Source: an uncultured Acidobacteriota bacterium
Lineage (GTDB): Bacteria > Acidobacteriota > JAQAZP01
Assembly (NCBI GenBank): GCA_963836075.1
Contig: CAWIIB010000009.1
Span: 2,208,311 to 2,272,310 of the forward strand
Length of the DNA stretch: 64,000 bases
Direction: 5' to 3'
Each line of letters begins with the position of its first letter. The stretch's first letter is position 1. This document shows positions 12,080 through 37,055 of this stretch, piece by piece. The notes under the pieces were generated by a model, which did no database searches, was not told the origin of the DNA, and saw nothing but the letters and a program-made list of their open reading frames with translations. The position numbers and the translations under genes are program-made.

Positions 12080-12084
12080 GACCA

Positions 12085-12615: not shown

Positions 12616-12622
12616 GGTACTG

Positions 12623-14316: not shown

Positions 14317-15644
14317 CCCGCAACGCGGGGACCCGGGCACCGGGAATCATGGCTGAAGAACTGATCCTGCTGAAAAACGACGGCAACCCGGACGCGCGGG
14401 CCCTGAGCTTCTACAAGGCCGGCGGCGGGTACCAGGCGCTGGAAAAGGCGCTGGGCATGCAGCCGGACGAGATCACCGAAGAGGTGAAGAAGGCCGGAGT
14501 GCGGGGCCGCGGCGGCGCCGGGTTCCCGGCAGGGGTCAAGTGGGGCTTCGTGCCCAAGGAAGCGCCAAAGCCGAAGTATCTCTGCTGCAACGCCGACGAG
14601 GGCGAGCCGGGCACCTTCAAGGACCGGGCGCTGATGGAGTGGGACCCGCACATGCTGATCGAGGGCATGGCCATCGCCTGCTTCGCCATCGGCATCCATA
14701 CCGCCTATATCTATATCCGCGGCGAGTTCCACTGGATCACCCTGATCCTGGAAAAGGCCATCGAGGAGGCCCGGGAGGCCAACCTGCTGGGCAAAAACAT
14801 CCTCGGCAGCGGTTTCGACTGCGAGATCTACGTCCACGAGGGTGCCGGCGCCTACATCTGCGGCGAGGAAACCGCACTGATCGAGTCCCTCGAGGGCAAG
14901 CGGGGCCAGCCGCGCCTCAAGCCCCCCTTCCCGGCGGTGGTGGGCGTCTTCGGCGGGCCGACGGTGGTGAACAACGTGGAGACGCTCTGTTGCGTGCCGC
15001 ACATCATCACCCGCGGCGCCGACTGGTTCACCTCCATCGGTCCCGAGCGCAACGCCGGGCCGAAGATCTTCCCGGTGAGCGGCCACGTGCGCAAGCCCGG
15101 CAACTACGAGCTGCCCATGGGCACGCCGCTGCGCGAGATCATCTACGATGTCTGCGGCGGCATCCCCGGTGACCGCAAGCTGAAAGCGGTGATCCCGGGC
15201 GGGTCGTCCACACCGGTGCTCAGCGCCGACGAAGTGGACGTCAAGATGGACTTCGACAGCCTGGCCGCCATCGGCTCCATGTTCGGCGCCGGCTCGATCA
15301 TCGTCATGGACGACAGCACCTGCATGGTGCGGGCACTGATGGTGCTGACCCGTTTTTATGCCCACGAGTCGTGCGGCCAGTGCACGCCGTGCCGCGAGGG
15401 CGTTCCCTGGATGTATGACATCATCAAACGCATCATGCGCGGCGAGGGCAAACCCGAAGATCCCGACCTGCTGCTGGATATCTGTGTCAACATCGAGGGC
15501 AACACCATCTGCCCCCTGGGTGATGCGGCGGTGGGTCCGGTGCGCAGCTTCATCCAGAAATTCAGAAACGAGTTCGACCATTACATCGAAACCGGGAAGT
15601 CGCTGGTTGGCGACGGCGGTTTCGATTTTCGCCCGGGAGACTGA
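14313..15644 (+). CDS. nuoF: NADH-quinone oxidoreductase subunit F (51 kDa, FMN/NADH binding); alternative start ATG 14349
   Basis: GRGGAGFPAGVKW (FMN site), CGQCTPCREG (4Fe-4S); GGAGGG RBS 6 nt before TTG 14313. Confidence 0.9.
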   Translation: MTRNAGTRAPGIMAEELILLKNDGNPDARALSFYKAGGGYQALEKALGMQPDEITEEVKKAGVRGRGGAGFPAGVKWGFVPKEAPKPKYLCCNADEGEPGTFKDRALMEWDPHMLIEGMAIACFAIGIHTAYIYIRGEFHWITLILEKAIEEAREANLLGKNILGSGFDCEIYVHEGAGAYICGEETALIESLEGKRGQPRLKPPFPAVVGVFGGPTVVNNVETLCCVPHIITRGADWFTSIGPERNAGPKIFPVSGHVRKPGNYELPMGTPLREIIYDVCGGIPGDRKLKAVIPGGSSTPVLSADEVDVKMDFDSLAAIGSMFGAGSIIVMDDSTCMVRALMVLTRFYAHESCGQCTPCREGVPWMYDIIKRIMRGEGKPEDPDLLLDICVNIEGNTICPLGDAAVGPVRSFIQKFRNEFDHYIETGKSLVGDGGFDFRPGD

Positions 15645-15647
15645 GCG

Positions 15648-17207
15648 GTGGCAACGATCACCATCAACGGACAGCAGGTTGAAGTGGCCAACGACGCCAC
15701 GATCATGAAGGCGGCGGAGAAGCTCGGGGTCTACATCCCCCATTTCTGCTACCACCCCGGCCTGTCCATCGCCGGCAACTGCCGGATGTGCCTGGTGGAG
15801 GTGGAAGGTGCGCCCAAACTGCTGGCCTCCTGCTGCTCACCGGTGCGTGACGGCATGGTGGTGCTGACCGAATCGGAGAAGGTGGTCAAGGCCCGCAAGG
15901 GAATCATGGAGTTCCTGCTGATCAACCACCCGCTGGACTGCCCGATCTGCGACCAGGCCGGCGAGTGCGTGCTGCAGGACTACAGCTACGACTACGGCGA
16001 CGGCCACAGCCGCTACAGCGAAGAGCGGCAGCGGCACGAGCGGGAAAATGTCGGCAGCACCATGGTGCGCGACATGAACCGCTGTATCGCCTGCACCCGC
16101 TGTGTGAGGTTCTTCCAGGAAGTCACCGGCGAAGACGAATACAACGTATACCTGCGGGGCGGGCACACCGAGGTGGGCACCTATGGCGACCACGAGATCG
16201 GCACCAAATTCATCGGCAACGCCGCCGAGATCTGTCCGGTGGGGGCGCTGACCCTGCGTGATTCCCGTTTCAAGTGCCGGCAGTGGCTCTTCGAACAGGC
16301 CGAATCGGTTTGCCCCTATTGCGCCAACGGCTGCCGTATCGAGATCGACTACCACAAGGACGTGCTGCACCGCTTCCGCAGCCGACCCGACCCGGAGAAG
16401 GACCGCTGGTGGATTTGCGACGAGGGCCGCTTCGGCTTCCACCGCCTCAACGACCGGGAAGCGCGGCTGAGCAAGCCGATGATCCGCCGCGACGGCACGT
16501 TGGTGGAAGTGAGTTGGGACGGAGCCTTCGCCTACATCGCCCAGCGGCTGAAGACCCTGGCCGCCGCCGACGCCACGACCCTGGCCGTCGGCTCGGGCCA
16601 CTGCTCCAACGAGGACAACTACGCGCTGAAGCGTTTTGCCAACCAGTGCCTGAACACCGACGCGGTGCGCTTCAAGTCATGGCCGCCGCCCTGGGTCACA
16701 CCCGGCGAGAAGGACCCGAAGGACCTGTTCATCGAGCCGGACAAGTCGGCCAACGGCACCGGCGCCCGCCGCCTGGGCCTGGAGCCCGACCCGGGCCTGG
16801 CCAAAACCTGGGACGAGCTGGCCGCCGGCGCCTTCCAGGTACTCTACGTCATGGGCGCCGACCTGCTGCGCGGCGACCCGGACAATCCCCGGGACCCCAA
16901 GGTGCTGGACAAACTGGGCCTGGTGGTGGTCCAGGACGTGTTCCGCAGCCCCACCACTGAGCTGGCCCACGTGGTGCTGCCGGCCCTGGCCTTCAGCGAG
17001 CGGCACGGCACCTACACCAACTGCCACGGCGAGGCCCAGGAATTCTTTGCCGGGCCGCACCCCTCGGGCAGCACGGCGATGGCCGACTGGGAGATCATCG
17101 CCCGGCTGGGCACCCACCTGGGGGACAGTTCCCCTGGACCGGGTTCCGCGAACTGCCCTGGCGCGAGGATTACAACGAGAGCGCGTAACAAGCGCGGACG
17201 GACCTAG
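15648..17207 (+). CDS. nuoG: NADH-quinone oxidoreductase subunit G (75 kDa, short form); probable 1-nt indel near 17113-17117 changes the last ~25 codons (alternative natural-looking end at 17189)
   Basis: 2Fe-2S CRMCLVEV, HPLDCPICDQAGEC, CIACTRCVRF clusters; alternative frame after CTGGGGG reads GQFPWTGFRELPWREDYNESA* instead of DSSPGPGSANCPGARITTRARNKRGRT*. Confidence 0.85.
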   Translation: MATITINGQQVEVANDATIMKAAEKLGVYIPHFCYHPGLSIAGNCRMCLVEVEGAPKLLASCCSPVRDGMVVLTESEKVVKARKGIMEFLLINHPLDCPICDQAGECVLQDYSYDYGDGHSRYSEERQRHERENVGSTMVRDMNRCIACTRCVRFFQEVTGEDEYNVYLRGGHTEVGTYGDHEIGTKFIGNAAEICPVGALTLRDSRFKCRQWLFEQAESVCPYCANGCRIEIDYHKDVLHRFRSRPDPEKDRWWICDEGRFGFHRLNDREARLSKPMIRRDGTLVEVSWDGAFAYIAQRLKTLAAADATTLAVGSGHCSNEDNYALKRFANQCLNTDAVRFKSWPPPWVTPGEKDPKDLFIEPDKSANGTGARRLGLEPDPGLAKTWDELAAGAFQVLYVMGADLLRGDPDNPRDPKVLDKLGLVVVQDVFRSPTTELAHVVLPALAFSERHGTYTNCHGEAQEFFAGPHPSGSTAMADWEIIARLGTHLGDSSPGPGSANCPGARITTRARNKRGRT

Positions 17208-18248
17208 ATGGATACCTTGACCGACATTCTGCTCTCCGACGCCGGCGTCACGGTGATCAAGGCGATGATCGTCTATTTCGCGGTGCTGATGACCGTGCCG
17301 GTGATGGTCTATATCGAGCGTCGCGGAGCCGGCCTGATCCAGGACCGCCTGGGGCCCAACCGGGTGGGGCCCTTCGGCCTGATCCAGCCGTTCGCCGACA
17401 TGGTCAAGCTGATGTTCAAGGAGGAGTTCATCCCCTTCAAGGCCAACCGCCTGCTCTACCTGGCGGCCCCGGCGCTGGCCCTGATCCCGGCGGGGATGAC
17501 CTTCGCCGTGATCCCCTTCGGCACCGAGATCACCATCGGCGGGATCAGCATCCCGCTGCGCGCCGCCGACCTCAACGTCGGCATCCTCTACATCTTCGCC
17601 CTGACCTCCCTGGGGGTCTACGGGATCATGATGGCCGGCTGGTCCTCGAACAACAAATACTCGCTGATGGGCGGCCTCCGTTCCTCGGCGCAGATGATCA
17701 GTTACGAACTGTCGATGACCCTGGCCGCGGTGGGGGTGATCATGGCTGCCGGTTCGCTGCGTCTCGGTGATATCGTCGAAGCCCAGACCCCGCTCTGGTT
17801 CTGCGTGCCGCTGTTCATCGGCTTCATCGTCTTCCTGGTGGCCAGTTTTGCCGAGACCAACCGGCTGCCCTTCGACATGCCCGAGGCGGAGAACGAACTG
17901 GTGGGCGGTTACCACACCGAATACAGCTCGATGCGCTTCGCCTCCTTCTTCATGGCCGAATACATCAACATGTTTGTCTCGGCCGGCTTGACGGTGACCC
18001 TCTTCCTCGGCGGCTACCGCTTCCCGCTGCAGCACCTGGTCACCGACCCGACCCTGCTCAGTCTTCTCCAGGTGGCGGCCTTCGTGGGCAAGATCGCCTT
18101 TCTGATGTGGTTCTTCGTCTGGATTCGCTGGACGCTGCCCCGGTTCCGCTACGACCAGCTGATGAAGCTGGGCTGGAAGGTGCTCTTCCCGCTGGCCCTG
18201 GCCAACGTCTTCATCACCGGGCTGCTGATCCTGCTCGGAGTGATATAG
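17208..18248 (+). CDS. nuoH: NADH-quinone oxidoreductase subunit H
   Basis: 346 aa, 8 TM; ...GLIQPFADMVKLMFKEE..., NRLPFDMPEAENELVGGYHTEYSSMRF. Confidence 0.9.
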   Translation: MDTLTDILLSDAGVTVIKAMIVYFAVLMTVPVMVYIERRGAGLIQDRLGPNRVGPFGLIQPFADMVKLMFKEEFIPFKANRLLYLAAPALALIPAGMTFAVIPFGTEITIGGISIPLRAADLNVGILYIFALTSLGVYGIMMAGWSSNNKYSLMGGLRSSAQMISYELSMTLAAVGVIMAAGSLRLGDIVEAQTPLWFCVPLFIGFIVFLVASFAETNRLPFDMPEAENELVGGYHTEYSSMRFASFFMAEYINMFVSAGLTVTLFLGGYRFPLQHLVTDPTLLSLLQVAAFVGKIAFLMWFFVWIRWTLPRFRYDQLMKLGWKVLFPLALANVFITGLLILLGVI

Positions 18249-18255
18249 GAAACCG

Positions 18256-18786
18256 ATGACCGGACCTGACGACAAAAAGAGGAAAAAGGACGTCCTGGTC
18301 AAGGAGTTCAAGCCGCTGACCTGGTGGGAGAAGCTCTACCTCCCCGCCGCCGTCAGCGGGCTGATCCTGACCATCCGTCACCTCTTCTTCAAGAAGAAAG
18401 TCACCGTGCAGTACCCGGAAGAGACGTTGCCGATCCACGACAATTTCCGGGCGCACCAGCGGCTGACCGTCCACGAGGACGGCCACGTCAAGTGCGTGGC
18501 CTGCTACATGTGCTCCACCGCCTGCCCGGCGGAGTGCATCCACATCGTGGCCCAGGAAGACCCGGACCCCGAAGTGGAGAAGGTGCCGCTCTCCTTCGAG
18601 ATCGACATGCTGCGCTGCATTTACTGCGGCTACTGCGAGGAGGCGTGCCCCAAGGACGCCATCGTCATGGGTACGCATTACGAGTTCTCGAATTACCAGC
18701 GGAAGAATTTCGACGTGGGCAAGGAAGAACTGGTCCACAAATACGACAGCGATCCCGGACGGAAGAGTAAAGTCGTAAAGAAGTAA
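18256..18786 (+). CDS. nuoI: NADH-quinone oxidoreductase subunit I (2x 4Fe-4S ferredoxin)
   Basis: CVACYMCSTACPAECI and CIYCGYCEEACPKDAI motifs. Confidence 0.9.
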   Translation: MTGPDDKKRKKDVLVKEFKPLTWWEKLYLPAAVSGLILTIRHLFFKKKVTVQYPEETLPIHDNFRAHQRLTVHEDGHVKCVACYMCSTACPAECIHIVAQEDPDPEVEKVPLSFEIDMLRCIYCGYCEEACPKDAIVMGTHYEFSNYQRKNFDVGKEELVHKYDSDPGRKSKVVKK

Positions 18787-18796
18787 GGGGAAGCCG

Positions 18797-19366
18797 TTGA
18801 TCGAAACCGTGCTTTTCTACATCCTGGCGGTCGTCGCCGTGGTCAGTGCGATCAGTGTGATCAGCCAGCGCAGCCCCATGTCCAGCGTGATCTCGCTGGT
18901 GGTCTGCTTCTTCTCCCTGGCCGTGCTCTACCTGCTGCTCAACGCGCACTTCATCGCCGTGCTGCAGGTGATTGTCTACGCCGGGGCGATCATGGTCCTC
19001 TTCCTCTTCGTGATCATGATGCTCAACCTGCGGGGGCCCGAGGCGCCGCACTCCTTCCACGGCCTGCACAAGCTGGCCGCCGCGGCCCTGGTGCTCTGCC
19101 TGGTCTGCCTGGTGGTCTTCGGGCTGGTCAACCGGGTGGTGCTGGGCGAGGCGGGCCAGGCCACCGAGGAAGCGGTGGGCGCCGCCGGCAACACCGAGCT
19201 GCTGGCCGAACTGCTCTTCCAGCGCTACCTGCTGCCCTTCGAGGCGGTTTCGATCCTGCTGCTGGCGGCCATCGTCGGCGCCATCGTGATGGCCAGCCGC
19301 CGCTTCGAGCGGCCGGACCACGAGGCCGACCCCGACGCGCCGGGCGCCAACAAGGAGACACGGTGA
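18797..19366 (+). CDS. nuoJ: NADH-quinone oxidoreductase subunit J
   Basis: 189 aa, TM-rich; TTG start; stop overlaps nuoK ATG (TGATG). Confidence 0.85.
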
Positions 19367-19671
19367 TGATGGTCACCCTCAACCACTACCTGGTGCTCAG
19401 CGCGCTGCTCTTCAGCATCGGTGTGGCCGGGGTGCTGCTGCGCCGCAACGCGATCATCATCTTCATGTCCATCGAACTGATGCTCAACGCGGTGAACCTT
19501 TCGTTCATCGCCTTTGCCCGCTACCTCGATTCTCTGGACGGGCAGATTTTCGTGCTCTTTGTCATGGCCGTGGCCGCCGCCGAGGTGGCGGTGGGCCTGG
19601 CGATCATCATCGCCATCTTCAAGAGGAAGTCCACGGCCGACGTGGACCGGGTCAACCTGCTCAAGTGGTGA
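19366..19671 (+). CDS. nuoK: NADH-quinone oxidoreductase subunit K
   Basis: ~101 aa; ...[21 protein letters not shown]...; AGGAGA RBS 8 nt upstream of ATG 19366. Confidence 0.9.
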
Positions 19672-19672
19672 C

Positions 19673-21707
19673 ATGTCACTGGAACTGATCATCCTGATTC
19701 CGTTAGCACCGCTGATCGGCTTTCTGATCAACGGCCTGCTGGGCCCGAAACTGCCCAAAAAACTGGTCAGCTTCATCGGCTGCGCGGCGGTGGGCGTCTC
19801 CCTGGTGGTGGCCATCCTCGCCTTCTCCACCCTGAGCGGGATGGAGGTGCGCCACTTCGAGCACGACTACTTCATGTGGATCGAGTCGCCGTCGGCCGAC
19901 TCGGGGGTGGTCAGCGACTACCGCGTCTCCATCCCCTTCGGCCTGCAGCTCGACCCGCTGTCCATGGTGATGGTGCTGGTGGTCACCGGGGTGGGCTTCC
20001 TGATCCACGTCTACTCCGTCGGCTACATGTGGCACGAGCGCGGCTATGCCCGCTACTTCTCCTTCCTCAACCTCTTCACCTTTGCCATGCTGATCCTGGT
20101 GCTGGCCAACAACTTCTTCCTGCTCTTTGTGGGCTGGGAGGGGGTGGGGCTCTGTTCGTATCTTTTGATCGGCTTCTTCTACGAGAAGCACTCGGCGGCC
20201 AAGGCGGGGATGAAGGCCTTCGTGGTCAACCGTATCGGTGACGTGGGCTTCGTCCTCGGCGCCTTCCTGGTCTTCCTTGTCTTCGGCACCCTTGATTTTT
20301 CCGAGGTGATGATGCTGGCCAGCCAGCCCGGCGCCGTTACCGCCGGCGCCGGCGTGATCACCCTCATGGCCCTGTTGCTCTTTGTCGGCGCCACCGGCAA
20401 GTCGGCACAGATCCCGCTCTATGTCTGGCTGCCCGACGCCATGGAGGGCCCCACACCGGTCAGCGCCCTGATCCATGCCGCCACCATGGTCACCGCCGGT
20501 GTCTACATGGTGGTGCGCTGCAACGTGCTCTTCGCCCTGGCTCCCGACGCCATGCTGGTCGTGGCGGTGATCGGCGGGATGACCGCCATCTTTGCCGCCA
20601 CCATCGGCCTGGTGCAGAACGACATCAAGCGGGTGCTGGCCTACTCCACGGTGAGCCAGCTGGGCTACATGTTCCTGGCCCTCGGCGTGGGCGCTTTCAC
20701 CGCCGGGATCTTCCACCTGATGACCCACGCCTTCTTCAAGGCGCTGCTCTTCCTCGGGGCCGGGCTCGGTGATCCACGCCATGAGCGGCGAGCAGGACAT
20801 CCGCAAGATGGGCAACCTCAAGGGCAAGATCCCCGTCACCTACTGGACGTTCCTCATCGCCTCGCTGGCCATCGCCGGTATCCCGCCGTTGTCCGGCTTC
20901 TTCTCCAAGGACGAGATCCTCTGGAAAACCTTCAGCACGGGACACACCATTCTCTGGGGTATGGGCTTCCTGACTGCCGGGATGACCGCCTTCTACATGT
21001 TCCGCCTGGTCTTCCTCACCTTCCACGGGGAAAGCCGGATGGACAAGGAAACAGAATCTCACGTGCACGAGTCGCCGAGGTCGATGACCGTGCCCCTGAT
21101 GACCCTTTGTCTGCTGGCCATTATCGGCGGCTGGATCGGCATCCCCCACGCCATCACCAACATCACTCACTTCCCCGCGGCCAACTACTTCGAGGAGTGG
21201 CTCGAGCCGGTGGTGGGGTGGAGCGGGGAGCAGCTGGCCGGTGGCCACGCGGATGCGGCCCACGCCGAGGTGCCCCACGGTGCAGAGCATGCTGCCGCCG
21301 GCCACGGCCACCATGCCGTGGACCCGATGGAATACGTGCTGATGGGCCTCTCGGTGCTCATCGCCCTCTCCGGCATCCTGCTGGCCGCGGCCTGGTATCG
21401 CAGGAAGAACGACACTCCGGCGAAACTGGCCGGGGTGCTGGACGGCGGCCCGTACCGCACACTGCTCAACAAATACTGGGTGGACGAGCTCTACGACCTG
21501 ACCGTCGTGCAGCGCTTCATCTGGTTCGGCAACTTCCTCTGGAAGTTTATCGACGTGATCGTCATCGACGGGACGGTGAACGCCGTGGCCCACATCAGCC
21601 GCTTCTTCGGCATCGTGGGATCGCGGTTCCAGACCGGCTACGTCAGAAACTACGCGCTGGGGATCGTTCTCGGCGTGGTGATCCTGATCTGGGCCTGCTT
21701 GTTTTAA
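19673..21707 (+). CDS. nuoL: NADH-quinone oxidoreductase subunit L; single-nt frameshift near 20760-20770 splits it between two frames
   Basis: N-part (19673-~20766) ...[13 protein letters not shown] then C-part (ORF 20769..21707) [18 protein letters not shown]...; removing one base in GGGGCCGGGC restores [17 protein letters not shown], the canonical NuoL sequence. Confidence 0.85.
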
Positions 21708-21734
21708 CCAGCAGGCCGGAAGGAAGAACAGAAC

Positions 21735-23312
21735 GTGTCCTGGCTAACCGAACATCTGCTCTCCTGGATCGTCTTCCTGCCCCTTGTCGGGGCGGGCCTG
21801 ATCATGCTCATCGGCAGGCAGAACAAGGCGGCCCTGCGCTGGACCGCCGTAATCTGTTCTTTGCTGGTTTTTGTCATCTCGCTGCCCCTCTGGTTCGGCT
21901 TTGACGAGACCACCGCGTCGATGCAGTTCGTCGAGCTGGCCGACTGGGTGCCCGCCCTGGGCATCAGCTACCACCTGGGCGTTGACGGTATCAGCCTGTT
22001 GCTGATCCTGCTCACCACCTTCATGACTCCGCTGACCCTGCTGAGCACCTTCAGCGCGGTGGACAAGCACCTCAAGGAGTTCCTGGTGGTGCTGCTGATG
22101 CTGGAGACGGGGATGCTCGGCGCCTTCGTGGCCGTCGATCTCTTCCTCTTCTACATCTTCTGGGAAGCGATGCTGATCCCGATGTGTTTCATCATCGGTA
22201 TCTGGGGCGGCCCCCGCCGGGTCTATGCGGCGGTGAAGTTTTTCCTCTACACCCTGGTGGGCTCCCTGCTGATGCTGGTGGCCATCCTGACCATGTATTT
22301 TCTCCAGCAGCAGGCCTCGGGCATCCCGACCTTCGACATGGCCACGCTGATGTCGACACCGGTGCCGGCCCATATGCAGATGTGTCTCTTCCTGGCCTTT
22401 GCCCTGTCCTTTGCCATCAAGGTGCCGATGTTCCCCTTCCACACCTGGCTGCCCGATGCCCACGTGGAAGCCCCCACTGCGGGCTCCGTGATCCTGGCTG
22501 CCATCCTGCTGAAACTGGGAACCTACGGCTTCATCCGTTTTGCCATACCGTTCTTCCCCGAGTCTTCCGGGGTTCTCACGACACTGTTTGCCTCGCTGGC
22601 CGTCATCGGCATCATCTATGGCGCCCTGGTGGCCATGGTGCAGAAGGACATCAAGAAGCTGGTGGCCTACTCCAGCGTCAGCCACCTGGGCTACGTCATG
22701 CTGGGCCTTTTCGCCCTCACCGTGCAGGGCGTGGAAGGCGGTATCTTCGTCATGCTGGCCCACGGCCTCTCCACCGGCGGGCTGTTCCTCATTGTCGGCA
22801 TGATCTACGAGCGGAGGCACACCCGGATGATCGCCGACTTCGGCGGCCTGGCCAGGCAGATCCCGGTGTTCACCACCATCTTCATGATCGTGACCCTGGC
22901 CTCCATCGGCCTGCCCGGACTGAACGGTTTCGTCGGCGAGATCCTGGTTCTGGTGGGCACCTTCACCTCCACCTCGATGAACCACGCCAAGGCTTTCACC
23001 GCCCTGGCCGCCACCGGGATGATCCTCGGCGCGGTCTACATGCTCTGGATGTTCCGCCGGGTGATGTTCGGGCCGCTGGAGCGCGAGGAGAACAAGACGA
23101 TCAAGGACTTAAGCGTCCGCGAGCTGGTGGTGATGATCCCGATCCTGATCATGATCGTCTGGATGGGTGTCTACCCCGGGCCGTTTCTCCGAAAAATGGA
23201 TGTCTCGGTGGCCGCATTTGTCGAGCGGGTGAAGGTGACCAGGCAGGCCACGGCCGAGATGAAAGCGACCGGACAGCCCCGGGGAGAGAGTGAAGCGAGG
23301 AGTGAGCAGTGA
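21735..23312 (+). CDS. nuoM: NADH-quinone oxidoreductase subunit M
   Basis: 525 aa, GTG start; ...FHTWLPDAHVEAPTAGSVILAAILLK... Confidence 0.9.
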   Translation: MSWLTEHLLSWIVFLPLVGAGLIMLIGRQNKAALRWTAVICSLLVFVISLPLWFGFDETTASMQFVELADWVPALGISYHLGVDGISLLLILLTTFMTPLTLLSTFSAVDKHLKEFLVVLLMLETGMLGAFVAVDLFLFYIFWEAMLIPMCFIIGIWGGPRRVYAAVKFFLYTLVGSLLMLVAILTMYFLQQQASGIPTFDMATLMSTPVPAHMQMCLFLAFALSFAIKVPMFPFHTWLPDAHVEAPTAGSVILAAILLKLGTYGFIRFAIPFFPESSGVLTTLFASLAVIGIIYGALVAMVQKDIKKLVAYSSVSHLGYVMLGLFALTVQGVEGGIFVMLAHGLSTGGLFLIVGMIYERRHTRMIADFGGLARQIPVFTTIFMIVTLASIGLPGLNGFVGEILVLVGTFTSTSMNHAKAFTALAATGMILGAVYMLWMFRRVMFGPLEREENKTIKDLSVRELVVMIPILIMIVWMGVYPGPFLRKMDVSVAAFVERVKVTRQATAEMKATGQPRGESEARSEQ

Positions 23313-24766
23313 ACTTTGATCTCTACGCCATAATGCCGATCCTGATCCTGGTGATCTGGGGCTGTGCGCTATTACTGCTCGAAGCCGCCTCCAGAAACAT
23401 GGCCCGCGCCGTGGCCGGGCCGCTGACCCTGGTGGCGGCCCTGGTCTCCGGCATCGGCTGCATCTGTCTCTGGGCCAACCCGCCCGGATCCCAGTTCGGC
23501 GGGATGCTGCTGCTGGACAAGTTCAGTCTGTTCTTTGGTGCCCTGCTGGCCTTCATCCTGGCCATGACCGTGCTGATCTCCGGCGGCTACCTCCGCCGGG
23601 AGGAGAACAACCACAGCGAGTATTACGCTCTGCTCTGCTTCACCGTATCCGGCGCCATGCTGATGGTCGGAGCAGGGGACATGCTGGTGCTCTTCCTCGG
23701 CATCGAGCTGCTCTCCATCCCGCTTTACATCCTTGCCGGGTTCCAGCGGAGAAAGCCCGAGTCCACCGAAGCCGCACTGAAATATTTCCTACTGGGCGCC
23801 TTTGCCACCGGCTTTCTGCTCTACGGCATCGCCCTGGTCTACGGCGCCACCGGCCAACTTGGCCTGCACGCCATCGCCGACCACCTGATCGCCAACGGTA
23901 TCACCACCGAGGAACCGATCCTGCTCATCGGCATCATCTTCCTGGTGGTGGCCTTCGGCTTCAAGGTTTCGGTGGTGCCCTTCCACATGTGGACCCCGGA
24001 TGTCTACCAGGGTGCGCCCACCTCGATCACCGCCTTCATGGCCGCCGCGCCCAAGGCTGCTGGCCTGGCCGTGGTTCTCCGTGTGTTCATCACCGCCTTC
24101 CCCACCGAGCAGGAGTTCGTCTCGGCCATGGTGGTGGTGCTGGCCGTGCTGACCATGACCGTGGGCAACGTGCTGGCCCTGGTGCAGGACAACATCAAGC
24201 GGATGCTGGCCTACTCGTCCATCGCCCACGTGGGCTATCTCCTGGTCGCGGTGGTGGCCGGCAACGAGCTGGGCATGCGGTCGGTCCTCTTTTACAGCGT
24301 GGTCTACGCCCTGATGAACATCGGCGCCTTCGGCCTGGTGATCATGCTCGGCAAGAAGGGGGAGAGCGATCTCGACATGTCCTCCTACGCCGGTGCCGGT
24401 TTCCGCTTTCCGCTGATCGGCCTGGCCATGGCCCTCTTCATGTTCTCCCTGGCCGGCATTCCGCCCACCGGCGGTTTTTTCGGCAAGTTCTACATCTTCT
24501 CCGCCGCGGTCAAGGCCGGGTATATCCCGCTGGCCATCATCGGCGTATTGAACTCCGCCCTCTCGCTCTACTTCTACCTCCGGGTGGTGGTCTACACCTA
24601 CATGCGGGAACCCGACTCCCGGGACGCCGTGGCCGACACCCTGACCCTCTCCCCGGGCCTGATCACCGCGGTGGTCATCGCCTGCCTCGGCACCCTCTAC
24701 CTCGGCCTGCAGCCCGGCGGCCTGCTTGGCCTGACCGGTGAGGCGATTCGGTCGTTGGTGGGGTAG
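23309..24766 (+). CDS. nuoN: NADH-quinone oxidoreductase subunit N
   Basis: 485 aa; ...FHMWTPDVYQGAPTSITAFMAAAPKAAGL...; GTG start overlapping nuoM stop. Confidence 0.9.
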   Translation: MNFDLYAIMPILILVIWGCALLLLEAASRNMARAVAGPLTLVAALVSGIGCICLWANPPGSQFGGMLLLDKFSLFFGALLAFILAMTVLISGGYLRREENNHSEYYALLCFTVSGAMLMVGAGDMLVLFLGIELLSIPLYILAGFQRRKPESTEAALKYFLLGAFATGFLLYGIALVYGATGQLGLHAIADHLIANGITTEEPILLIGIIFLVVAFGFKVSVVPFHMWTPDVYQGAPTSITAFMAAAPKAAGLAVVLRVFITAFPTEQEFVSAMVVVLAVLTMTVGNVLALVQDNIKRMLAYSSIAHVGYLLVAVVAGNELGMRSVLFYSVVYALMNIGAFGLVIMLGKKGESDLDMSSYAGAGFRFPLIGLAMALFMFSLAGIPPTGGFFGKFYIFSAAVKAGYIPLAIIGVLNSALSLYFYLRVVVYTYMREPDSRDAVADTLTLSPGLITAVVIACLGTLYLGLQPGGLLGLTGEAIRSLVG

Positions 24767-24769
24767 GCT

Positions 24770-26580
24770 GGCTCACCCTGGCGGCACACCGTCAACCGCA
24801 GTTTCCACCAGTCTCCTCATAATCCTGCTGACTGACGCTCAAGCTGATCGGCCCCGATCTTGCTCCTCCTGGTCTGTATGGGCCAGGACAAACAGAGCAT
24901 CTACCGACCCCGGCGGCCGGAGCGGACCGACCTGCACCTGGCGGTTCGCGAGAACCTGGAGTTGTTCCTCGAAACCTACGACGAGCGGTTCCTCGACCGG
25001 CACGGCCCTCTGACCGACCGTGCCCGCCGCACGCTGGAGGAGTATCTTCGCTGCGGGATCCTTGCCGCGGGGTTCGCCCGGGTCCGCTGTGGCGACTGCG
25101 GCCACGAGCAACTGGTGGCCTTCTCCTGCCAGCTCCGAGGTGTCTGCCCTTCATGCCAGCAGAAACGGGCCGAGATCCTTTGCCGCTTCGTCATCGACGA
25201 GGTGATCGAGCCGGTGGAGCACCGCCAGCTGGTCTTCGTGCTGCCCAGGCACCTCCGCCGCCCGTTCTACCGCGACCGCCGACTGCTCACCGGCCTGTGC
25301 CGCTCAGCGGTGGAGGCGACCCACACGTTCTACCGGGCCGGCCTGGGCCGTGACGATCTGAGAGTGGGGATGGTGGTGGTTCCCCAGCGGTTCGGCGACC
25401 GGGTCAATCCGCACATTCACCTGCATGCCCTAGCCACCGACGGCGCTTTCGACCGGGACGGACTGTTCCACCCGATGCCCTTCGGCATGCAGGGGGACAT
25501 CGAGGTGCTGGAGCGGCTGTTCGCCCGGCGGGTGCTCGACCTGATGGTGAGGCGTAAGCGGCTGAGCGTGCGCCTTCGCGACGAGATGCTGGACTGGGAG
25601 CATAGCGGGTTCTCGGTGGACGGCTCGGTCAGGGTGGCGGTGGGGGATTACGGGCGGCTCAAGCGGCTGGTGCGCTACCTGGCCCGTCCGGCGGTGTCGG
25701 CGGAGCGGGTGTCCTACGACCGGTCGAACGGCACGGTCACGGTGCGCAGTTCGAAGAAGGTGCGGGGCGTCCGTCCGGTTGTGGCCCAATACGACGGGCT
25801 GACCTTCCTGTCCCTTCTGGCGCTGCAGGTGCCGCCGCCCGGGGTGCACATGGTGCGCTACTACGGTCACTACTCGGTGCGGAGCCGGGCGGAGCGGAGG
25901 AAGAGGTCCGGGGAGGGGACGGCCGGCATCCGCAGCGAAAAGCCGCCGCCGGCAAGCGAGCGGCGGCGGAGGTGGGCGGAGCTGATCCGCCTGGTATTCG
26001 AGGTGGACCCTCTGCGCTGTGATAAGTGCGGGGGCGGTATGAAGGTCGTCTCGTTCATCTCGACGGCGCAGTCCGAGGTGATCCGCCGCATCCTCGAGCA
26101 CCTGGGGGTGAGCACCGTCGTTCCCCGGGCCCACGGGCCGCCGGGGTGGGCTGCCACAAGCGAGCGGCACGTTCAGGCCGAGCTCTCCAGGGACGAGGAG
26201 GACTGCTCGCAGGCGCCGCCAGGTTGGGACGAGTGGGAGCCGGCGTGAGGCCTTCGGTCAGTGACGGGCTGCAGGGAGAGGTATGTCCTGATGACAGATT
26301 AAACGGGGGGCATCGTCGGCATGGCGTAAGGCCACCAGGGATTGACCTCGAACGGCGGGGGAGTGGAGAAACGGCAGGGGGAAAATGACCGGATCATGGA
26401 CCTGAAGGGAGGGGAGATTTCTTGACGCCGGGAAAGGAAATCCCTACTCTTCTCACCTGGTTGATGATCGAGGTGGAGGCGCCCTGATGCTGGGCTCACT
26501 GGTGGGCAACGCACTGCTGCTGGTGCCGGTGACCCGGGCGACCCACCGGCACCGCTGAGCTGGTCGTCTACCCGCTATTT
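24770..26580 (+). mobile_element. IS91-family insertion sequence (ends not resolvable by eye) inserted immediately downstream of nuoN
   Basis: Transposase CDS plus flanking non-coding DNA between nuoN stop (24766) and FG-GAP gene start (26646). Confidence 0.4.
24860..26248 (+). CDS. IS91-family transposase (HUH Y2 rolling-circle type) with N-terminal zinc-binding domain
   Basis: CGDCGHEQLVAFSCQLRGVCPSCQQKR zinc ribbon; HIHLHALATDGAF; C-terminal ...CDKCGGGMKVVSFISTAQSEVIRRILEHLGV typical of IS91/ISCR transposases; alternative ATG 24878. Confidence 0.85.
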   Translation: MLLLVCMGQDKQSIYRPRRPERTDLHLAVRENLELFLETYDERFLDRHGPLTDRARRTLEEYLRCGILAAGFARVRCGDCGHEQLVAFSCQLRGVCPSCQQKRAEILCRFVIDEVIEPVEHRQLVFVLPRHLRRPFYRDRRLLTGLCRSAVEATHTFYRAGLGRDDLRVGMVVVPQRFGDRVNPHIHLHALATDGAFDRDGLFHPMPFGMQGDIEVLERLFARRVLDLMVRRKRLSVRLRDEMLDWEHSGFSVDGSVRVAVGDYGRLKRLVRYLARPAVSAERVSYDRSNGTVTVRSSKKVRGVRPVVAQYDGLTFLSLLALQVPPPGVHMVRYYGHYSVRSRAERRKRSGEGTAGIRSEKPPPASERRRRWAELIRLVFEVDPLRCDKCGGGMKVVSFISTAQSEVIRRILEHLGVSTVVPRAHGPPGWAATSERHVQAELSRDEEDCSQAPPGWDEWEPA

Positions 26581-29959: not shown

Positions 29960-31300
29960 GAACTTAGCGCTTCAGGAGTGTACCATCGATGAATGATGTA
30001 CAAACTCCTCAAAACCATCTATTCAGCTCTGAGAACCCAACGAACTTTGGCCCTGGAGAACCTGGCGCTCAGGCAACAACTTGCCATCCTCCGTCGAACG
30101 ATGAAACGCCCTCGATTGACGGAAACCGATCGACTGTTCTGGGTCTTCCTTTCCAGGATATGGCGAGACTGGGCCCAGGTGCTCGTTGTCGTCAAGCCTG
30201 AAACCGTCATTTCCTGGCATCGGGTGGGCTTCAAGCTCTTCTGGCGATTGAAAAGCCGGCGGAGGAACCGGGGCCGGCCTCGAGTTACACGTGAGATCAG
30301 GGATCTGATCAGAAGAATGTCCCGAGAAAACCCGACGTGGGGCGCTCCAAGAATCCATGGAGAACTGCTCAAACTGGGAATCGATGTGTCTCCGGCATCC
30401 GTGTCGAAATATATGGGTCGCCACCGGAAACCTCCATCCCAAACTTGGAGAACCTTCCTGCGCAACCATATGGGCGACATGGCCTCCATTGATTTCTTCA
30501 CCGTGCCCACGGCGACGTTCCGGATTCTCTACGCCTGTATCATTCTGACCCACTCTCGACGCCTCGTTGTACATTTCAACATCACCGATTCCCCTTCGGC
30601 AGCCTGGACTGGTCAGCAGATCATCGAGGCATTTCCCTGGGATTCAGCTCCGCGGTATCTGCTCCGCGATCGTGATGGGAAATACGGCCATGAATTTGTC
30701 AGCCGCGTCCGGTCAATGGGCATTGAAGAAGTGAAGACTGCCCCACGATCACCCTGGAAAAACTGTTTCGTCGAGAGGCTCGTTGGATCCATACGCCGAG
30801 ATTGCCTCGACCATGTCATCATCATCAACGAACAGCACCTCCGGCGAATCCTGAAAGAGTACTTCCTGTATTACCACCGGTCTCGAACGCATCTATCGCT
30901 CGATAAGGATTGTCCGGAGCCGCGAGCTGTAGAATCACCGAAGATGGGCAAAGTGATCGCACTGCCGCAGGTCGGTGGACTCCACCATCGCTACACCCGT
31001 CGGGCCGCCTGATCTGGTCGTGGACTTCAAAGCTTCTACATCAGATAGAACTGTAGGATCGTTTGTTCCGAATCGTTTTCTTTGGTCAGGCAACACTTCA
31101 TGAAGTGGCGATCCGTTGGTCTCGATGATTTCCCCCATCGATGATGCTTCAATTCTTCACTCTGAATGATCCCTCCGTCCATTCGTTCGACACCATCAGC
31201 GAGTCAGATGGATTTTGCAGGAGCCACAGGTATCCTGAATCATGTACACCGTACACAGCGAGGCGCGGATTCCCATATCCGCGCCTCATTGATTCTGCTC
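29960..31300 (+). mobile_element. IS481-like insertion sequence (approximate limits); lower-GC block between FG-GAP gene and flotillin gene
   Basis: Transposase gene, local GC drop, palindromic/CCATCGATGA repeats near both ends (29982-29998, 31133-31149), 11-bp stem hairpin 31259-31286. Confidence 0.35.
29993..31012 (+). CDS. DDE transposase/integrase (rve integrase core; IS481-like family)
   Basis: 339 aa; N-terminal HTH region, WGAPRIHGELLKLGIDVS, DFFTVPTATFRILYACIILTHSRRLVVHFNITDSPSAAWTGQQIIEAFP (DDE core). Confidence 0.8.
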   Translation: MMYKLLKTIYSALRTQRTLALENLALRQQLAILRRTMKRPRLTETDRLFWVFLSRIWRDWAQVLVVVKPETVISWHRVGFKLFWRLKSRRRNRGRPRVTREIRDLIRRMSRENPTWGAPRIHGELLKLGIDVSPASVSKYMGRHRKPPSQTWRTFLRNHMGDMASIDFFTVPTATFRILYACIILTHSRRLVVHFNITDSPSAAWTGQQIIEAFPWDSAPRYLLRDRDGKYGHEFVSRVRSMGIEEVKTAPRSPWKNCFVERLVGSIRRDCLDHVIIINEQHLRRILKEYFLYYHRSRTHLSLDKDCPEPRAVESPKMGKVIALPQVGGLHHRYTRRAA

Positions 31301-32992: not shown

Positions 32993-33021
32993 TTGACAAG
33001 AGGGCGGTGAACTACAATATT
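32993..33021 (+). promoter_or_regulatory. Candidate promoter (TTGACA -17- AATATT) upstream of selenoperoxiredoxin gene
   Basis: TTGACA 32993-32998; weak -10; divergent region between flotillin and prx. Confidence 0.2.
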
Positions 33022-33254
33022 GGTCGATGTGGTCTAAGTTGTTGCAAGAACTAAATATATCGACATGGTGGTCATTCGCACACCGGGTCCCGCCGGTGGG
33101 GCAGCTGGTGTCGTTTCTTGCCGGTCGATAGTGGCGAAAGGAGCAACGCATGGCGCAGGAGAAGGACGGGTGCGTCAAGCCGGCAAGGGGCCCGATCATG
33201 CCGGCAGAATCGGAAGGCAGTCCAGGCGGCGGTGAAAAAAAGGAGGTGATCGCC

Positions 33255-33851
33255 ATGCAGGCACGAGTGGGACGGGAAGCGCCGGATTTCGAGGCCAACG
33301 CATACGTGGCCGGTGAGGGGTTCAAGACGGTTCGGCTCTCCGGTTTCAAGGGCAAGTGGATCGTGCTCTGCTTCTACCCCGGTGACTTCACCTTTGTCTG
33401 ACCCACCGAACTGGCGGCGGTCGCCGCCCGTTACGAGGACCTGAAAGGGCTCGGTGTCGTCGTGCTGTCCATGAGCACCGACAGCCGGTTCGTGCACCAG
33501 ATCTGGCAGCGCGAGGAACTGGCCAAAATGGTCGACGGTGGGGTGCCCTTCCCGATGCTTTCCGATGCCGGGGGGCTGATCGGCAAACTGTATGGGGTGT
33601 ACGATGAGGCCGCCGGAGTCGATATCCGCGGCCGGTTCATCATCGACCCCGATTTCGTCATCCGGGCGATGGAGGTGCTGACCCCCGAGGTGGGCCGCAA
33701 TCCCGATGAACTGACCCGGCAGGTCAAGGCGTTCCAGCATGTGGCATCCACCGGCGAGGTGACCCCCTCCGGCTGGCAGCCCGGCGATACCACCCTCACG
33801 CCGGGCCCCGACCTGGTGGGCAAGGTCTGGGAGGCCTGGAAGGTCAAGTAG
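33255..33851 (+). CDS. Selenocysteine-containing peroxiredoxin (AhpC/Prx1 family; Sec encoded by in-frame TGA 33399-33401 at the peroxidatic Cys position)
   Basis: ORFs 33150..33401 and 33462..33851 are in the same frame separated only by TGA; read-through gives [38 protein letters not shown] matching the FTFVCPTE active site; AAGGAGGTGA RBS 7 nt before ATG 33255; SECIS-like hairpin 11 nt downstream of TGA. Confidence 0.85.
33402..33435 (+). promoter_or_regulatory. Bacterial SECIS-like element: 11-nt spacer then hairpin GGCGGC-GGUC-GCCGCC
   Basis: Stem 33413-33418 / 33423-33428, apical loop GGTC 33419-33422, identical to the GGUC apical loop of E. coli fdhF SECIS; begins 11 nt after UGA. Confidence 0.6.
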
Positions 33852-33859
33852 GGCGAGGG

Positions 33860-34314
33860 CGCGATCAACAGGGCCCGACACGCCGAACCCCGACCAGGAG
33901 GATGCCGACGAGGACGGTGTTGGTGATGCCTGTGACACGGCCTCCGCCACCCTGGCCGCCACTCTGCGCTGTCTGCCCGATGCGGGGACCCTGCCCTTCA
34001 CCACCACCATGACGGTGGAACTGGCCAACCTGTATGGCGGGCAAACCCGCCGTCTGGCTGGACGTCTCGAACTGGACCTGGCCGGCGGGCAGCACTACGG
34101 CAGCTGGCGGGCCGGCTGGAGCAACATTGGCCCTTCAAACAGCTACCTCACCAGTTGGGGGCAATTCATCCCCGCCCTGGGATCGCTGGTGGGTGTCAAC
34201 ACCTTCACCCTGCTGGCCGAGGATGTCACACCGGCCCCGTACAACCAGCCGCCCTACCCGGCAGCCGGCGACCAGGCCAGCGACAACTGCACGGTGACCG
34301 GAATCCTTCCCTGA
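33860..34314 (+). pseudogene. Orphan copy of the conserved ~115-aa C-terminal domain (CTVTG-type CTD) without an N-terminal catalytic part or signal peptide; possibly a gene remnant (ATG-initiated ORF 34009..34314)
   Basis: Frame 1 reads ...DQEDADEDGVGDACDTASATLAATLRCLPDAGTLPFTTTMTVELANLYGGQTRRLAGRLELDLAGG...WRAGWSNIG...LGSLVGVNTFTLLAEDVTPAPYNQPPYPAAGDQASDNCTVTGILP, homologous to C-termini of four neighbouring genes; starts right after prx stop with no start codon. Confidence 0.45.
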
Positions 34315-34829: not shown

Positions 34830-37055
34830 TCAGGGGGCGTGGGCCACCACCACGTTTGTCTTGGTGCACGTACTTCCCGAAGGCGGGTAGGGCGGCTGGT
34901 TGTATGGGGCCGGCGTTACATCCATGACGGACAACATACTGGTGTTGCTGCCGATGACGCTCCCCAAACTCGGGATGGTCACCGGGAACTGGGTGTAGTA
35001 GAAGGAACCCGGGGCTACGTTGGTGTAGCCCGCTCTCCAAGGGTTGAAGAGGGTGCCGTTGGCCAGGGTCAGGGAGATCTGCCCGGCGATCCGGCGGGTG
35101 AGGGCCGCGCCTCCGCTGAGGGTGTTGGTCATGGTGATCTGGTGCAGCACCTGGAAGGGCACTGTACCCGAGGAGGGCGTGCAGTTATAACTGCAGGTAA
35201 GGGTCGAGGTGCTCACGGCGCCGAACCCGGTGGCCCGGAGGCCGTAGTTGCCGTAAACCCCGCTGTCGGCGTAGAAGGTGCCTCCGATATAGGTCATGGT
35301 CCGTCCGTTCCAGGGTGAGCTGGTGTCCGCGCCGATGTTCGAACCGTTGTAAATGATGTAGAGCACCCAGAAGTCGCCCGAAGCGATCTGGATGTTCAGG
35401 CCGGAGACATCCTCGTAGTCCCAGCTATACCCGGTGGCCCCGGTGCTGGTGAGCACCGAGGTGAGAGGGGAGCCCGGCGAACCGCCGCTGTCGGACCAGA
35501 TCTGGTACTGACAGTTCCCGGTGTTCTGATGGATGTGAATCCCCTTCAGGTCGAAGGGGTAGGCGCCTGGCGTCATTCGCACCGCCCAGCCGTAACCCTC
35601 GGCCCAGTTCCAGCCGGTCTCGATGGACCCGTCGTCATAGACCAGGTATTCCCACAGGTCGCCCGGCTGGATGTCCATCTGCATGTCGCCGGCCGAAGCG
35701 GCGATATTGGTGATCGAAACCCCGGAGGCGCTGCCGTCATGCCGGTTGCTCGACGGCGTGGTGGAGGCGGTGAACTGGTCCACCGTGCTGTAGGGATAGA
35801 TGTCGCCGCTGTCACCGTAGGGCATGAAGGCTGAGCAGTCGAGGTCGAAGTTGCCGTCCGGCTGCTCCAGGGAGACCAGGTAGTGCGAGCTGGACGTGCA
35901 GTACGGCGCGTCCTCGCAGTCATTGCCGGTGGCGACTTCCTCGTCGATGTGCCAGACCAGCACACCGCCGCCCGGAAGGTTGCTGTCGAAACCGTAGCTG
36001 TTATCGCGGTGGGAGACCAGCAGGTACTCGGAACCCCGCCAGTTCATCCCGATCTTCAGCACCGTGGCGTTGTCCTCGATCCGCGGCAGCAGCCGGCCGA
36101 CAGCCGGTGAGGCCACCACCGTGGGGGTGAGCCAGCCCATCTGGATCTTGGACCAGGCGCAGAGGTGAGTGGGCTGTTCGGGATCGGCCACCGTGCCGCC
36201 CCATCCGCCGTAGCCCATCAGTCCCCAGACACCGATGCCTGAGCTGAGGGTGTCCATCGGCGGCCCGCAGACGAACCCGGTGTCGTTCAGGTCGGGCAGG
36301 CCTAGCATGTGGCCGAACTCGTGGCAGTACACGCCGATCTTGACGTGGGTCAGCGGCGAGGCGTCCTGCAGTTCCGGAACGCAGAGGTAGGAATCAATGG
36401 TCTTGCCGTCGTAGGACCGTGCCGTGCCGCCCATGGCGCTGATCGAGCTGAGGTGGCTGTGGATATCGTTGGTGTCCAGGCTGGTCTCGTGCCCCTCGCC
36501 GCAGTGCACCACGAAGATCGATTCGGCCACCCCGTCGCCGTCGTTGTCGTACTGGGAGAAATCAACCCCGGCGGTCTCGGCGGCATCCACCGCCTCCTCA
36601 ACCAGCGCGGCCGCGTTCCGGGGGTACGCGCCCCAACCCTGTTGCGCATTGCCGTAATAGGCCCGGGTGTTGGCCGCCGTATACCAGCCCACGCACAGAC
36701 CGGCGAGCTGCAGATTGCCGTACGACACCTCGTTGAAATAGTCGTTCATACTGTGTGGCGACCAGGGGCCGAACACCATGTTGTCAAAGGAGCCGGCCGT
36801 GTAGTTGCTGGTGACGTCCGAGAAACGGATACAGATCACCAGGATGTTGTGCGTTGCCCGCCAGCCCCCGTCGGGGATCCGGGCCGGCTTGTCGATCCAG
36901 GGCGGCTTGACCATCAGCTGCCGCCCATCCAGGGTCAGTCCGGGATTGGCCGGATCCAGAGCCCTGGGATCAACCGTGATCGCCTGGGCCAGAAAGCCGG
37001 GGAAGGAAAAGAGCGTGCACAACAAAAGCACCAACAGAAAATACTTGATATTCAT
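34830..37055 (-). CDS. Secreted M6-like (immune inhibitor A-type) zinc metallopeptidase with conserved C-terminal CTVTG-type domain
   Basis: Signal peptide MNIKYFLLVLLLCTLFSFPGFLAQA; HEFGHMLGLPDLNDTG (HExxH...zinc site); C-terminal ~115 aa CTD (...WRAGYTNVAPGSFYYTQF...DVTPAPYNQPPYPPSGSTCTKTNVVVAHAP). Confidence 0.8.
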   Translation of the reverse strand: MNIKYFLLVLLLCTLFSFPGFLAQAITVDPRALDPANPGLTLDGRQLMVKPPWIDKPARIPDGGWRATHNILVICIRFSDVTSNYTAGSFDNMVFGPWSPHSMNDYFNEVSYGNLQLAGLCVGWYTAANTRAYYGNAQQGWGAYPRNAAALVEEAVDAAETAGVDFSQYDNDGDGVAESIFVVHCGEGHETSLDTNDIHSHLSSISAMGGTARSYDGKTIDSYLCVPELQDASPLTHVKIGVYCHEFGHMLGLPDLNDTGFVCGPPMDTLSSGIGVWGLMGYGGWGGTVADPEQPTHLCAWSKIQMGWLTPTVVASPAVGRLLPRIEDNATVLKIGMNWRGSEYLLVSHRDNSYGFDSNLPGGGVLVWHIDEEVATGNDCEDAPYCTSSSHYLVSLEQPDGNFDLDCSAFMPYGDSGDIYPYSTVDQFTASTTPSSNRHDGSASGVSITNIAASAGDMQMDIQPGDLWEYLVYDDGSIETGWNWAEGYGWAVRMTPGAYPFDLKGIHIHQNTGNCQYQIWSDSGGSPGSPLTSVLTSTGATGYSWDYEDVSGLNIQIASGDFWVLYIIYNGSNIGADTSSPWNGRTMTYIGGTFYADSGVYGNYGLRATGFGAVSTSTLTCSYNCTPSSGTVPFQVLHQITMTNTLSGGAALTRRIAGQISLTLANGTLFNPWRAGYTNVAPGSFYYTQFPVTIPSLGSVIGSNTSMLSVMDVTPAPYNQPPYPPSGSTCTKTNVVVAHAP

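Follow-up and report, generated by a model that had tools for sequence, protein, structure and literature searches.

The putative prxU locus and its reading frame

The locus described here lies in a stretch of 64,000 nucleotides (nt) from an uncultured Acidobacteriota bacterium (GenBank assembly GCA_963836075.1, contig CAWIIB010000009.1, positions 2,208,311 to 2,272,310), which is referred to as the window. It comprises a putative prxU gene, predicted to encode a peroxiredoxin with selenocysteine (Sec) as the peroxidatic residue, and a short hairpin 3' of an in-frame TGA codon, which is a candidate selenocysteine insertion sequence (SECIS). From its ATG to its TAG, the frame is interrupted by this TGA alone (Table 1). 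In the list of open reading frames (ORFs), the same frame appears as two entries, i.e., 33150..33401 with 83 amino acids and 33462..33851 with 129 amino acids. The original prediction, which was made from the sequence alone, had described two adjacent same-frame ORFs parted only by TGA 33399–33401, and these coordinates were confirmed. It had placed the start of the gene at 33255. This position is a second in-frame start (see below), but the ORF begins at 33150, which adds an N-terminal arm of 35 residues (Met1 to Ala35).

For the genomic comparison, one genome per species was scanned, and the 80 closest loci together with the window gave a set of 81 sequences. An in-frame upstream extension to an ATG was found in all 81 sequences, with the ATG mostly 4 or 7 codons before an invariant Cys codon. 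A perfect AGGAGG precedes this first start in 34 of 80 homologs, and a match of five of the six positions was found in 21 of 80. As predicted, prxU is split by gene callers: the 83-residue fragment of the window is recorded as a separate protein, and relatives are annotated as proteins of 84 and 145 amino acids. In the protein search, many database relatives were 145-residue fragments starting directly after the Sec site.

Table 1. Position of the features of the putative prxU gene, of other features of the window, and of the hairpins in three Cys-type loci.
Feature	Position	Strand	Remarks
Shine-Dalgarno GGAG for ATG 33150	33140..33143	+	6-nt spacer; seen in the sequence
prxU, full coding sequence (putative)	33150..33851	+	233 codons including predicted Sec84; stop codon TAG 33849-33851
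N-terminal arm motif	33162..33197	+	Cys8 codon 33171-33173, invariant
Internal Shine-Dalgarno AGGAGG and start codon	33241..33257	+	AGGAGG 33241-33246; 8-nt spacer; ATG 33255-33257 (Met36)
Cys74 (TGC)	33369..33371	+	Ten residues before Sec; Cys at U-10 in 81/81
UGA codon, predicted Sec84, peroxidatic residue of PxxxTxxU	33399..33401	+	Aligned with the peroxidatic Cys of Prx2 and of the Cys-type homologs P0003, P0007, P0033 and P0036
Spacer from UGA to hairpin, 11 nt	33402..33412	+	Length invariant in 81/81
Predicted SECIS hairpin GGCGGC-GGUC-GCCGCC	33413..33428	+	Apical G-U 33420-33421; covariation, RNAalifold
Thr205 codon, place of the C-terminal resolving Cys	33762..33764	+	GEVTPSGW aligned on GEVCPAGW of Prx2 (5ijt), Cys172
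nuo (complex I) operon, complete-looking	11291-24766	+
IS91-type Y2 transposase gene	24860-26248	+	Directly after nuoN
rve_3 integrase gene	29993-31012	+
Cys-type (TGC) prxU keeping a SECIS-like hairpin at 11 nt, locus L086	1701-1735	-
Cys-type (TGC) prxU keeping a SECIS-like hairpin at 11 nt, locus L087	733-767	-
Cys-type (TGC) prxU keeping a SECIS-like hairpin at 11 nt, locus L088	4416-4450	+

Protein family and active site

For the profile and Pfam searches, the TGA codon was translated as Cys. The product matched the NCBIfam equivalog NF040737 (peroxi_PrxU) with 367 bits over model positions 2–232 of 233, the curated cutoff being 270 bits; begun at Met36, the product scored 354.9 bits. Pfam matches were obtained to AhpC-TSA (E = 3e-35) and 1-cysPrx_C. 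With 181.9 bits, the score for the AhpC equivalog TIGR03137 was under its cutoff of 272, and NCBIfam models of the Prx6 type likewise scored under their cutoffs.

The nearest solved structures are typical 2-Cys peroxiredoxins, and human Prx2 (5ijt; E = 1.5e-45) aligned over residues 37–221. In this alignment, the TGA codon coincides with the peroxidatic Cys, which bears out the position in an AhpC/Prx protein that had been proposed for it. The active site reads P77-G-D-F-T81-F-V-U84 (PxxxTxxU, with U denoting Sec). The sequence IRGRFIID aligns with YRGLFIID, the motif of the catalytic Arg, and R160 is invariant among the homologs.

Conservation and decoding of the UGA codon

The products of the 80 closest loci share 71–81% identity with the window product over residues 1–231. 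They belong to Gemmatimonadota, Krumholzibacteriia, Chloroflexota including Anaerolineae and Dehalococcoidia, Aminicenantes, Acidobacteriota, Planctomycetia, Nitrospirae, Ignavibacteriaceae and Desulfomonilaceae, and include the cultured Desulfothermobacter acidiphilus. The peroxidatic codon was TGA in all 80 of these closest genomic relatives, i.e., in 81 of 81 sequences including the window. The ratio of nonsynonymous to synonymous substitution rates (dN/dS) was determined on either side of this codon in comparison with eight relatives (dS of 0.8–2.1). Before the TGA (45 codons), dN/dS was 0.03–0.06 for seven of the eight relatives, while dS was saturated for the eighth (L022). After the TGA (146 codons), it was 0.04–0.10 for the eight relatives. 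Since dN/dS is low on either side of the TGA, both halves are translated in one frame.

Among the full-length homologs retrieved by the protein search, five carry Cys at the Sec site (P0003, P0007, P0027, P0033 and P0036), and the others carry Trp. We take the Trp residues to be TGA codons for which gene calling had applied an alternative genetic code. TGA is the commonest ordinary stop codon in the window, ending 17 of 31 Pfam-supported genes. Thus, the recoding is site-specific and does not reflect a genome-wide reassignment, and since the code is standard in the window, the Trp residues were regarded as artefactual, stemming from the code table under which the genes had been called.

During translation, the hairpin 11 nt 3' of the UGA would present its apical G-U, and SelB carrying Sec-tRNA(Sec) would bind there. 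Sec would then enter the A site at the UGA in place of release factor 2, and translation would run on to the TAG at 33849. The resulting enzyme would reduce peroxides via Sec84 in PxxxTxxU. By analogy with established bacterial Sec decoding, we infer Sec insertion, SelB binding and the presence of selA, selB, selC and selD in the host genome.

The predicted SECIS hairpin

The motif GGCGGC-GGTC-GCCGCC had been predicted to lie 11 nt after the TGA, and it was found at this distance (Table 1). In the window, it forms a 6-bp stem with a 4-nt loop, and its free energy was −11.7 kcal/mol for the 16-nt hairpin alone and −17.8 kcal/mol for 47 nt. The original prediction had also called for a fold and a comparison with the bacterial SECIS (bSECIS) model of Zhang and Gladyshev. 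As given in Fig. 2 of PMC13188914, this model comprises a loop of 3–9 nt on an upper stem of 4–16 bp, a G at position 1 or 2 of the loop, or at both (G, then G or U), a distance of 16–37 nt from the UGA to the loop, and a minimum free energy of −7.5 kcal/mol or lower. The window hairpin agreed with the model on all four counts; its UGA-to-loop distance of 17 nt (11-nt spacer and 6-nt stem arm) is invariant in the 81 sequences.

Stem pairs that are dictated by the encoded peptide prove nothing, and therefore the synonymous positions are informative. In the ungapped alignment of the 81 hairpins, the third bases of Ala codons 1 and 3 formed G-C in 48 sequences, A-U in 27, U-A in 4 and C-G in 1, and the pair was broken in 1. 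The wobble base of the Leu codon and that of the fourth Ala codon formed a pair in 76 of the 81 hairpins, some of them as A-U or C-G. Across the 6-bp stem, 98.1% of the cells were paired. Neither the observed covariation score nor the percentage paired was reached by any of 500 shuffles, and the signal collapsed in slid registers. RNAalifold predicted exactly the 6-bp stem and nothing else.

The loop was similarly constrained. It read GGUC in 73 sequences, AGUU in 7 and GGUU in 1, so that its outer bases covary (G-C 73, A-U 7, G-U 1) while all 81 sequences share the apical G and U. The Val codon of the loop was GUC or GUU only, whereas the full set of four codons occurs at a different invariant Val position in these genes. 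The hairpin sequence of the window is the commonest SECIS variant (31 of 81). Since the TGA is present in all 81 sequences, and since synonymous sites in both wobble-position pairs and in the loop show constraint, it is this comparison that renders the hairpin significant. Judged from the sequences, the locus is very probably prxU, i.e., a gene for a thioredoxin-fold peroxiredoxin of the AhpC/Prx1 type with Sec as the peroxidatic residue and a bacterial SECIS with a GGUC loop.

Alternative explanations

Several observations weigh against this assignment, and they are considered here together with the explanations that they favor. In the ORFs of the window that were scanned by Pfam (all except the nuoG–nuoK stretch and a few weak ORFs), no SelA, SelB or SelD domain was found, as the original prediction had stated for selA, selB and selD. 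No tRNA, and hence no tRNA-Sec, was found within the 64 kb window. Crude motif scans for SelA, SelD and SelB gave nothing in the window or in 88 related loci (1.3 Mb). A scan for in-frame TGA codons with high GC content at third codon positions (GC3) on both sides and a G-containing hairpin yielded no second selenoprotein candidate in the window; the other in-frame TGA cases turned out to be adjacent genes such as nuoF/nuoG.

The lack of a Sec machinery gene or tRNA-Sec in the window speaks for a relic: the Sec machinery would have been lost, the UGA would terminate translation, an inactive 83-residue fragment would be made, and the intact downstream frame would reflect a recent loss. However, sel genes are usually unlinked to their client genes, and therefore their absence from 64 kb carries little information. 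The window copy carries the commonest SECIS variant, and its frame is intact, with a downstream dN/dS of 0.03–0.10 versus relatives of 84–89% identity. Outside the window, a UGA-truncated C-terminal fragment of PrxU (P0057) of 145 amino acids is 91.7% identical to the window copy, and the contig on which it is recorded has the length (3,516,849 bp) of the contig with the proteins of the window. This suggests that the host genome carries two UGA-containing prxU genes, P0057 being the second, and that both are functional is more probable than that both are intact relics. A relic is thus considered very unlikely.

Even less likely is a readthrough in which near-cognate decoding or a reassigned code would place Trp, Cys or Gly, instead of Sec, at the UGA. 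The several database homologs with Trp at the site would fit this explanation, but the code is standard, with TGA ending more than half of the Pfam-supported genes of the window. Trp or Gly at the peroxidatic site would inactivate the enzyme, yet its PxxxTxx- motif hardly varies and its catalytic Arg does not vary at all. Moreover, the hairpin is conserved and its apical G-U never varies, as is characteristic of SelB recruitment.

The remaining objections concern the hairpin itself. Its single-sequence fold is unremarkable (z = −1.65), since 15 of 200 shuffles folded as well, and the coding of A-A-V-A-A (GCN GCN GUN GCN GCN) by itself accounts for four of the six stem pairs. No Rfam family was found for it, either in the whole window at the gathering threshold or in 33300–33520 at a permissive E-value, where the matches to F6, Xanthine and mir-6827 were at chance level. 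An extended lower stem in the minimum-free-energy fold of the window was rejected because, for three of its five pairs, pairing is lost in roughly half of the 81 sequences or in more.

In addition, the control with Cys-form relatives is small and mixed. Of three distant Cys-type relatives (TGT or TGC), one has five of the six pairs with a UGUC loop, one has three of the six pairs, and one has five of the six pairs but a mismatch inside the stem; one hairpin thus retains 5 bp, and two are degraded. Searching with a degenerate pattern for the same peptide, with TGY at the Sec site, retrieved three metagenomic loci only (L086, L087 and L088; Table 1), all with a perfect GGCGGC-AGTT-GCCGCC. Probably, Sec has been exchanged for Cys in these loci only recently, and the hairpin is a fossil SECIS. 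Since the TGC loci keep a perfect hairpin, the hairpin alone does not part Sec from Cys forms in this small sample.

The peptide-dictated pairs, the low z-score and the hairpins of some Cys-type relatives would suit a hairpin that is a by-product of Ala-Ala-Val-Ala-Ala coding, in two independent genes or behind an assembly or sequencing error at the codon. This is hardly credible, given that the same TGA occurs in 80 independent assemblies, that the downstream part has neither a start codon nor a Shine-Dalgarno sequence at the junction and makes up the C-terminal half of one Prx fold, that the two peptide-independent pairs are formed in 80 and 76 of 81 sequences with compensatory changes, and that the loop Val codon is limited to two of the four Val codons.

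A probable second translation start within prxU

The start at 33255, with which the original prediction had let the gene begin, was analyzed in the same 81 sequences. A start codon is present at the aligned position in 80 of 81 (ATG in 62, GTG in 17 and TTG in 1). A perfect AGGAGG precedes it in 63 of 80 sequences, as compared to 3 of 810 control positions in the same genes. The spacing from GGAGG to the start was 8 nt in 62 sequences and 5 nt in 11. Where the internal Shine-Dalgarno sequence covers Glu codons, GAG was used 89 times and GAA 15 times, whereas the two codons were used 720 and 727 times elsewhere in the same genes. The hexamer is kept even where the amino acids differ (S-G-G-V, V-E-G). 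Because of this codon bias and because the hexamer is maintained despite amino acid changes, selection for the internal Shine-Dalgarno sequence at the nucleotide level is indicated. The internal Shine-Dalgarno sequence and start are kept at the nucleotide level in 77–80 of 81 sequences, at the site where canonical peroxiredoxins begin. Thus, on the basis of its sequence, prxU probably yields a long and a short product from one ORF.

Conserved cysteines and the possible resolving mechanism

The N-terminal arm that would distinguish the long product contains a motif with the consensus K-D-G-C-V-K-P-x-x-G-P in the 81 sequences. Its Cys8 is present in 81 of 81 (TGT in 43, TGC in 38), the Gly six residues on is invariant and encoded by four codons, and the Val is likewise encoded by four codons. 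Since invariant residues are encoded by varied synonymous codons, the arm is under selection as a protein. A second invariant Cys, Cys74, precedes the Sec site by ten residues (Table 1); typical 2-Cys peroxiredoxins have Phe at this position, as judged from the Prx2 alignment. Besides Cys8 and Cys74, no conserved Cys was found in the 81 sequences. In the AlphaFold model of the Cys-type homolog P0007 (mean predicted local distance difference test (pLDDT) score of 90), the core was confident, while the arm scored about 62–66 and the linker below 50. In two planctomycete-type Cys homologs (P0036 and P0044), signal-peptide-like sequences were observed ahead of the same arm motif.

Thr had been predicted at the place where typical 2-Cys peroxiredoxins have the resolving Cys, and it was found there as Thr205 in the Prx2 alignment. 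The designation as a 1-Cys-type enzyme, which had been derived from it, is unproven: the C-terminal resolving Cys is absent, but Cys8 and Cys74 occur in each of the 81 sequences. From this conservation, a two-residue Sec/Cys mechanism appears at least as likely as the 1-Cys type. Our preferred guess is that oxidized Sec84 would form a selenenylsulfide with Cys8 on the flexible arm, or else with Cys74, and that reduction by thioredoxin would follow.

For the prxU clade, a division of labor between the two products may be proposed tentatively, although we consider it rather unlikely. The long form with Cys8 would provide a tethered resolving thiol for the selenenic acid of Sec84, the short form would consist of the catalytic core alone, and recycling or oligomer behavior would be tuned by the proportion of long to short form. 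If true, the protein would be a Sec/Cys enzyme with an N-terminal resolving residue and not a 1-Cys enzyme. No description of this reading, of the conserved double start or of the N-terminal Cys arm was found in the searchable literature. The double start and the arm are a modest lead, rather than a finding, for those who study how peroxiredoxins work or how translation is initiated at alternative sites.

Genomic neighborhood

Upstream of prxU, a sigma-70-like promoter match (TTGACA-17-AATATT, 10 of 12 positions) was observed at 32993–33021, about 100–150 bp before the gene. It is followed at 33037–33052 by the palindrome AGTTGTTGCAAGAACT, a possible operator. In the relatives L081 and L085, a Fur-family (PerR-like) gene adjoins prxU, which is not the case in the window. 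In L085, a catalase beside prxU and next to a Fur-family gene was called as two ORFs of 311 and 202 amino acids, both matching PF00199 (10611–12151, minus strand). A frameshift or a further case of recoding could account for this split, as could a fault in the assembly.

The neighbors of prxU in the window are unrelated to it, with a flotillin-like gene upstream on the opposite strand and genes for dodecin and an M6 peptidase downstream. Just downstream of prxU, a 101-residue ORF (34009–34314, plus strand) has an end that resembles the C-terminal tail of the M6 peptidase (34830–37055, minus strand), the two sharing DVTPAPYNQPPYP. It may be a duplicated fragment of a C-terminal domain or a sorting-signal region. 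Elsewhere, the window encodes FG-GAP repeat proteins, RtcB (P0123) and two transposases. The IS91-type Y2 and rve_3 genes place mobile elements between the nuo operon and the prxU region (Table 1). Over nuoF–nuoK, antisense ORFs of 218–544 amino acids with a GC3 of about 0.6 were observed, which can mislead longest-ORF pickers in this sequence of 62.5% GC. A search with NuoF gave relatives of 95% and 90% identity, followed by matches of 62–70% from mixed phyla.

Comparison with known systems

The locus is best annotated as a single selenoprotein gene of 233 codons with a transl_except entry for Sec at 33399–33401, instead of as fragments of 83 and about 130–145 amino acids. The gene marks its host as a probable Sec user, which matters when other split redox genes of the same genome are read. 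With regard to Sec decoding, prxU adds nothing biologically new, the family, the Sec/Cys pairing and the SECIS type having been described already.

The gene of the window is an ordinary member of an already described and curated selenoprotein family. 'Peroxiredoxin (Prx), TxxU' is listed among the experimentally verified prokaryotic selenoproteins (PMC13188914, PMC9312934), and in these reviews the citation given for the verified Sec-peroxiredoxin is Sohling et al. 2001, for Eubacterium acidaminophilum. Since 2006, counts of Sec-peroxiredoxins have covered many anaerobes (PMC1794560), and such proteins are annotated in cultured sulfate reducers, e.g., Desulfococcus multivorans (PMC5109826). 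The window protein resembles PrxU of Eubacterium (Peptoclostridium) acidaminophilum in its AhpC/Prx1-type fold, in the predicted Sec in PxxxTxxU and in the in-gene SECIS just after the UGA. It shows no family-defining difference from the PrxU family, and its N-terminal arm is covered by the curated model. The E. acidaminophilum protein was not among the best 120 database matches of the protein search; its length is about 203 amino acids, and it would hence lack the 35-residue arm.

In comparison with human Prx2 and bacterial AhpC, the window protein is alike in sharing about 45% identity over residues 37–221, the active-site Pro, Thr and Arg, and the C-terminal domain. It differs by the predicted Sec in place of the peroxidatic Cys, by Thr205 in place of the resolving Cys, by the extra Cys74 and by the arm with Cys8. 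For the proposed role of Cys8, an analogy is provided by yeast Ahp1, in which the resolving Cys31 lies N-terminal to the peroxidatic residue. The likeness is limited to a resolving thiol that precedes the peroxidatic residue, since Ahp1 is of the Prx5-type subfamily and has neither a tethered low-complexity linker nor Sec.

The closest parallel to the hairpin is the SECIS of E. coli fdhF, which reads TGA-CACGGCCCATC-GGTTGCA-GGTC-TGCACC and was found under fdhF in 5419 E. coli genomes. The original prediction had matched the apical loop to the GGUC of fdhF, and the likeness extends to the spacer of 11 nt and to the length of the stem, with six paired positions below a GGUC apex with G-U. In fdhF, the apical G-U dinucleotide contacts SelB. 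The fdhF stem has a bulged U, whereas that of prxU is perfect, GC-rich and without a bulge; furthermore, prxU has no conserved lower stem, and the first and last bases of its loop covary. As a by-product, the comparison thus provides a clean covariation set, from at least ten phylum- or class-level lineages, for a minimal SECIS with a geometry nearly identical to that of fdhF.

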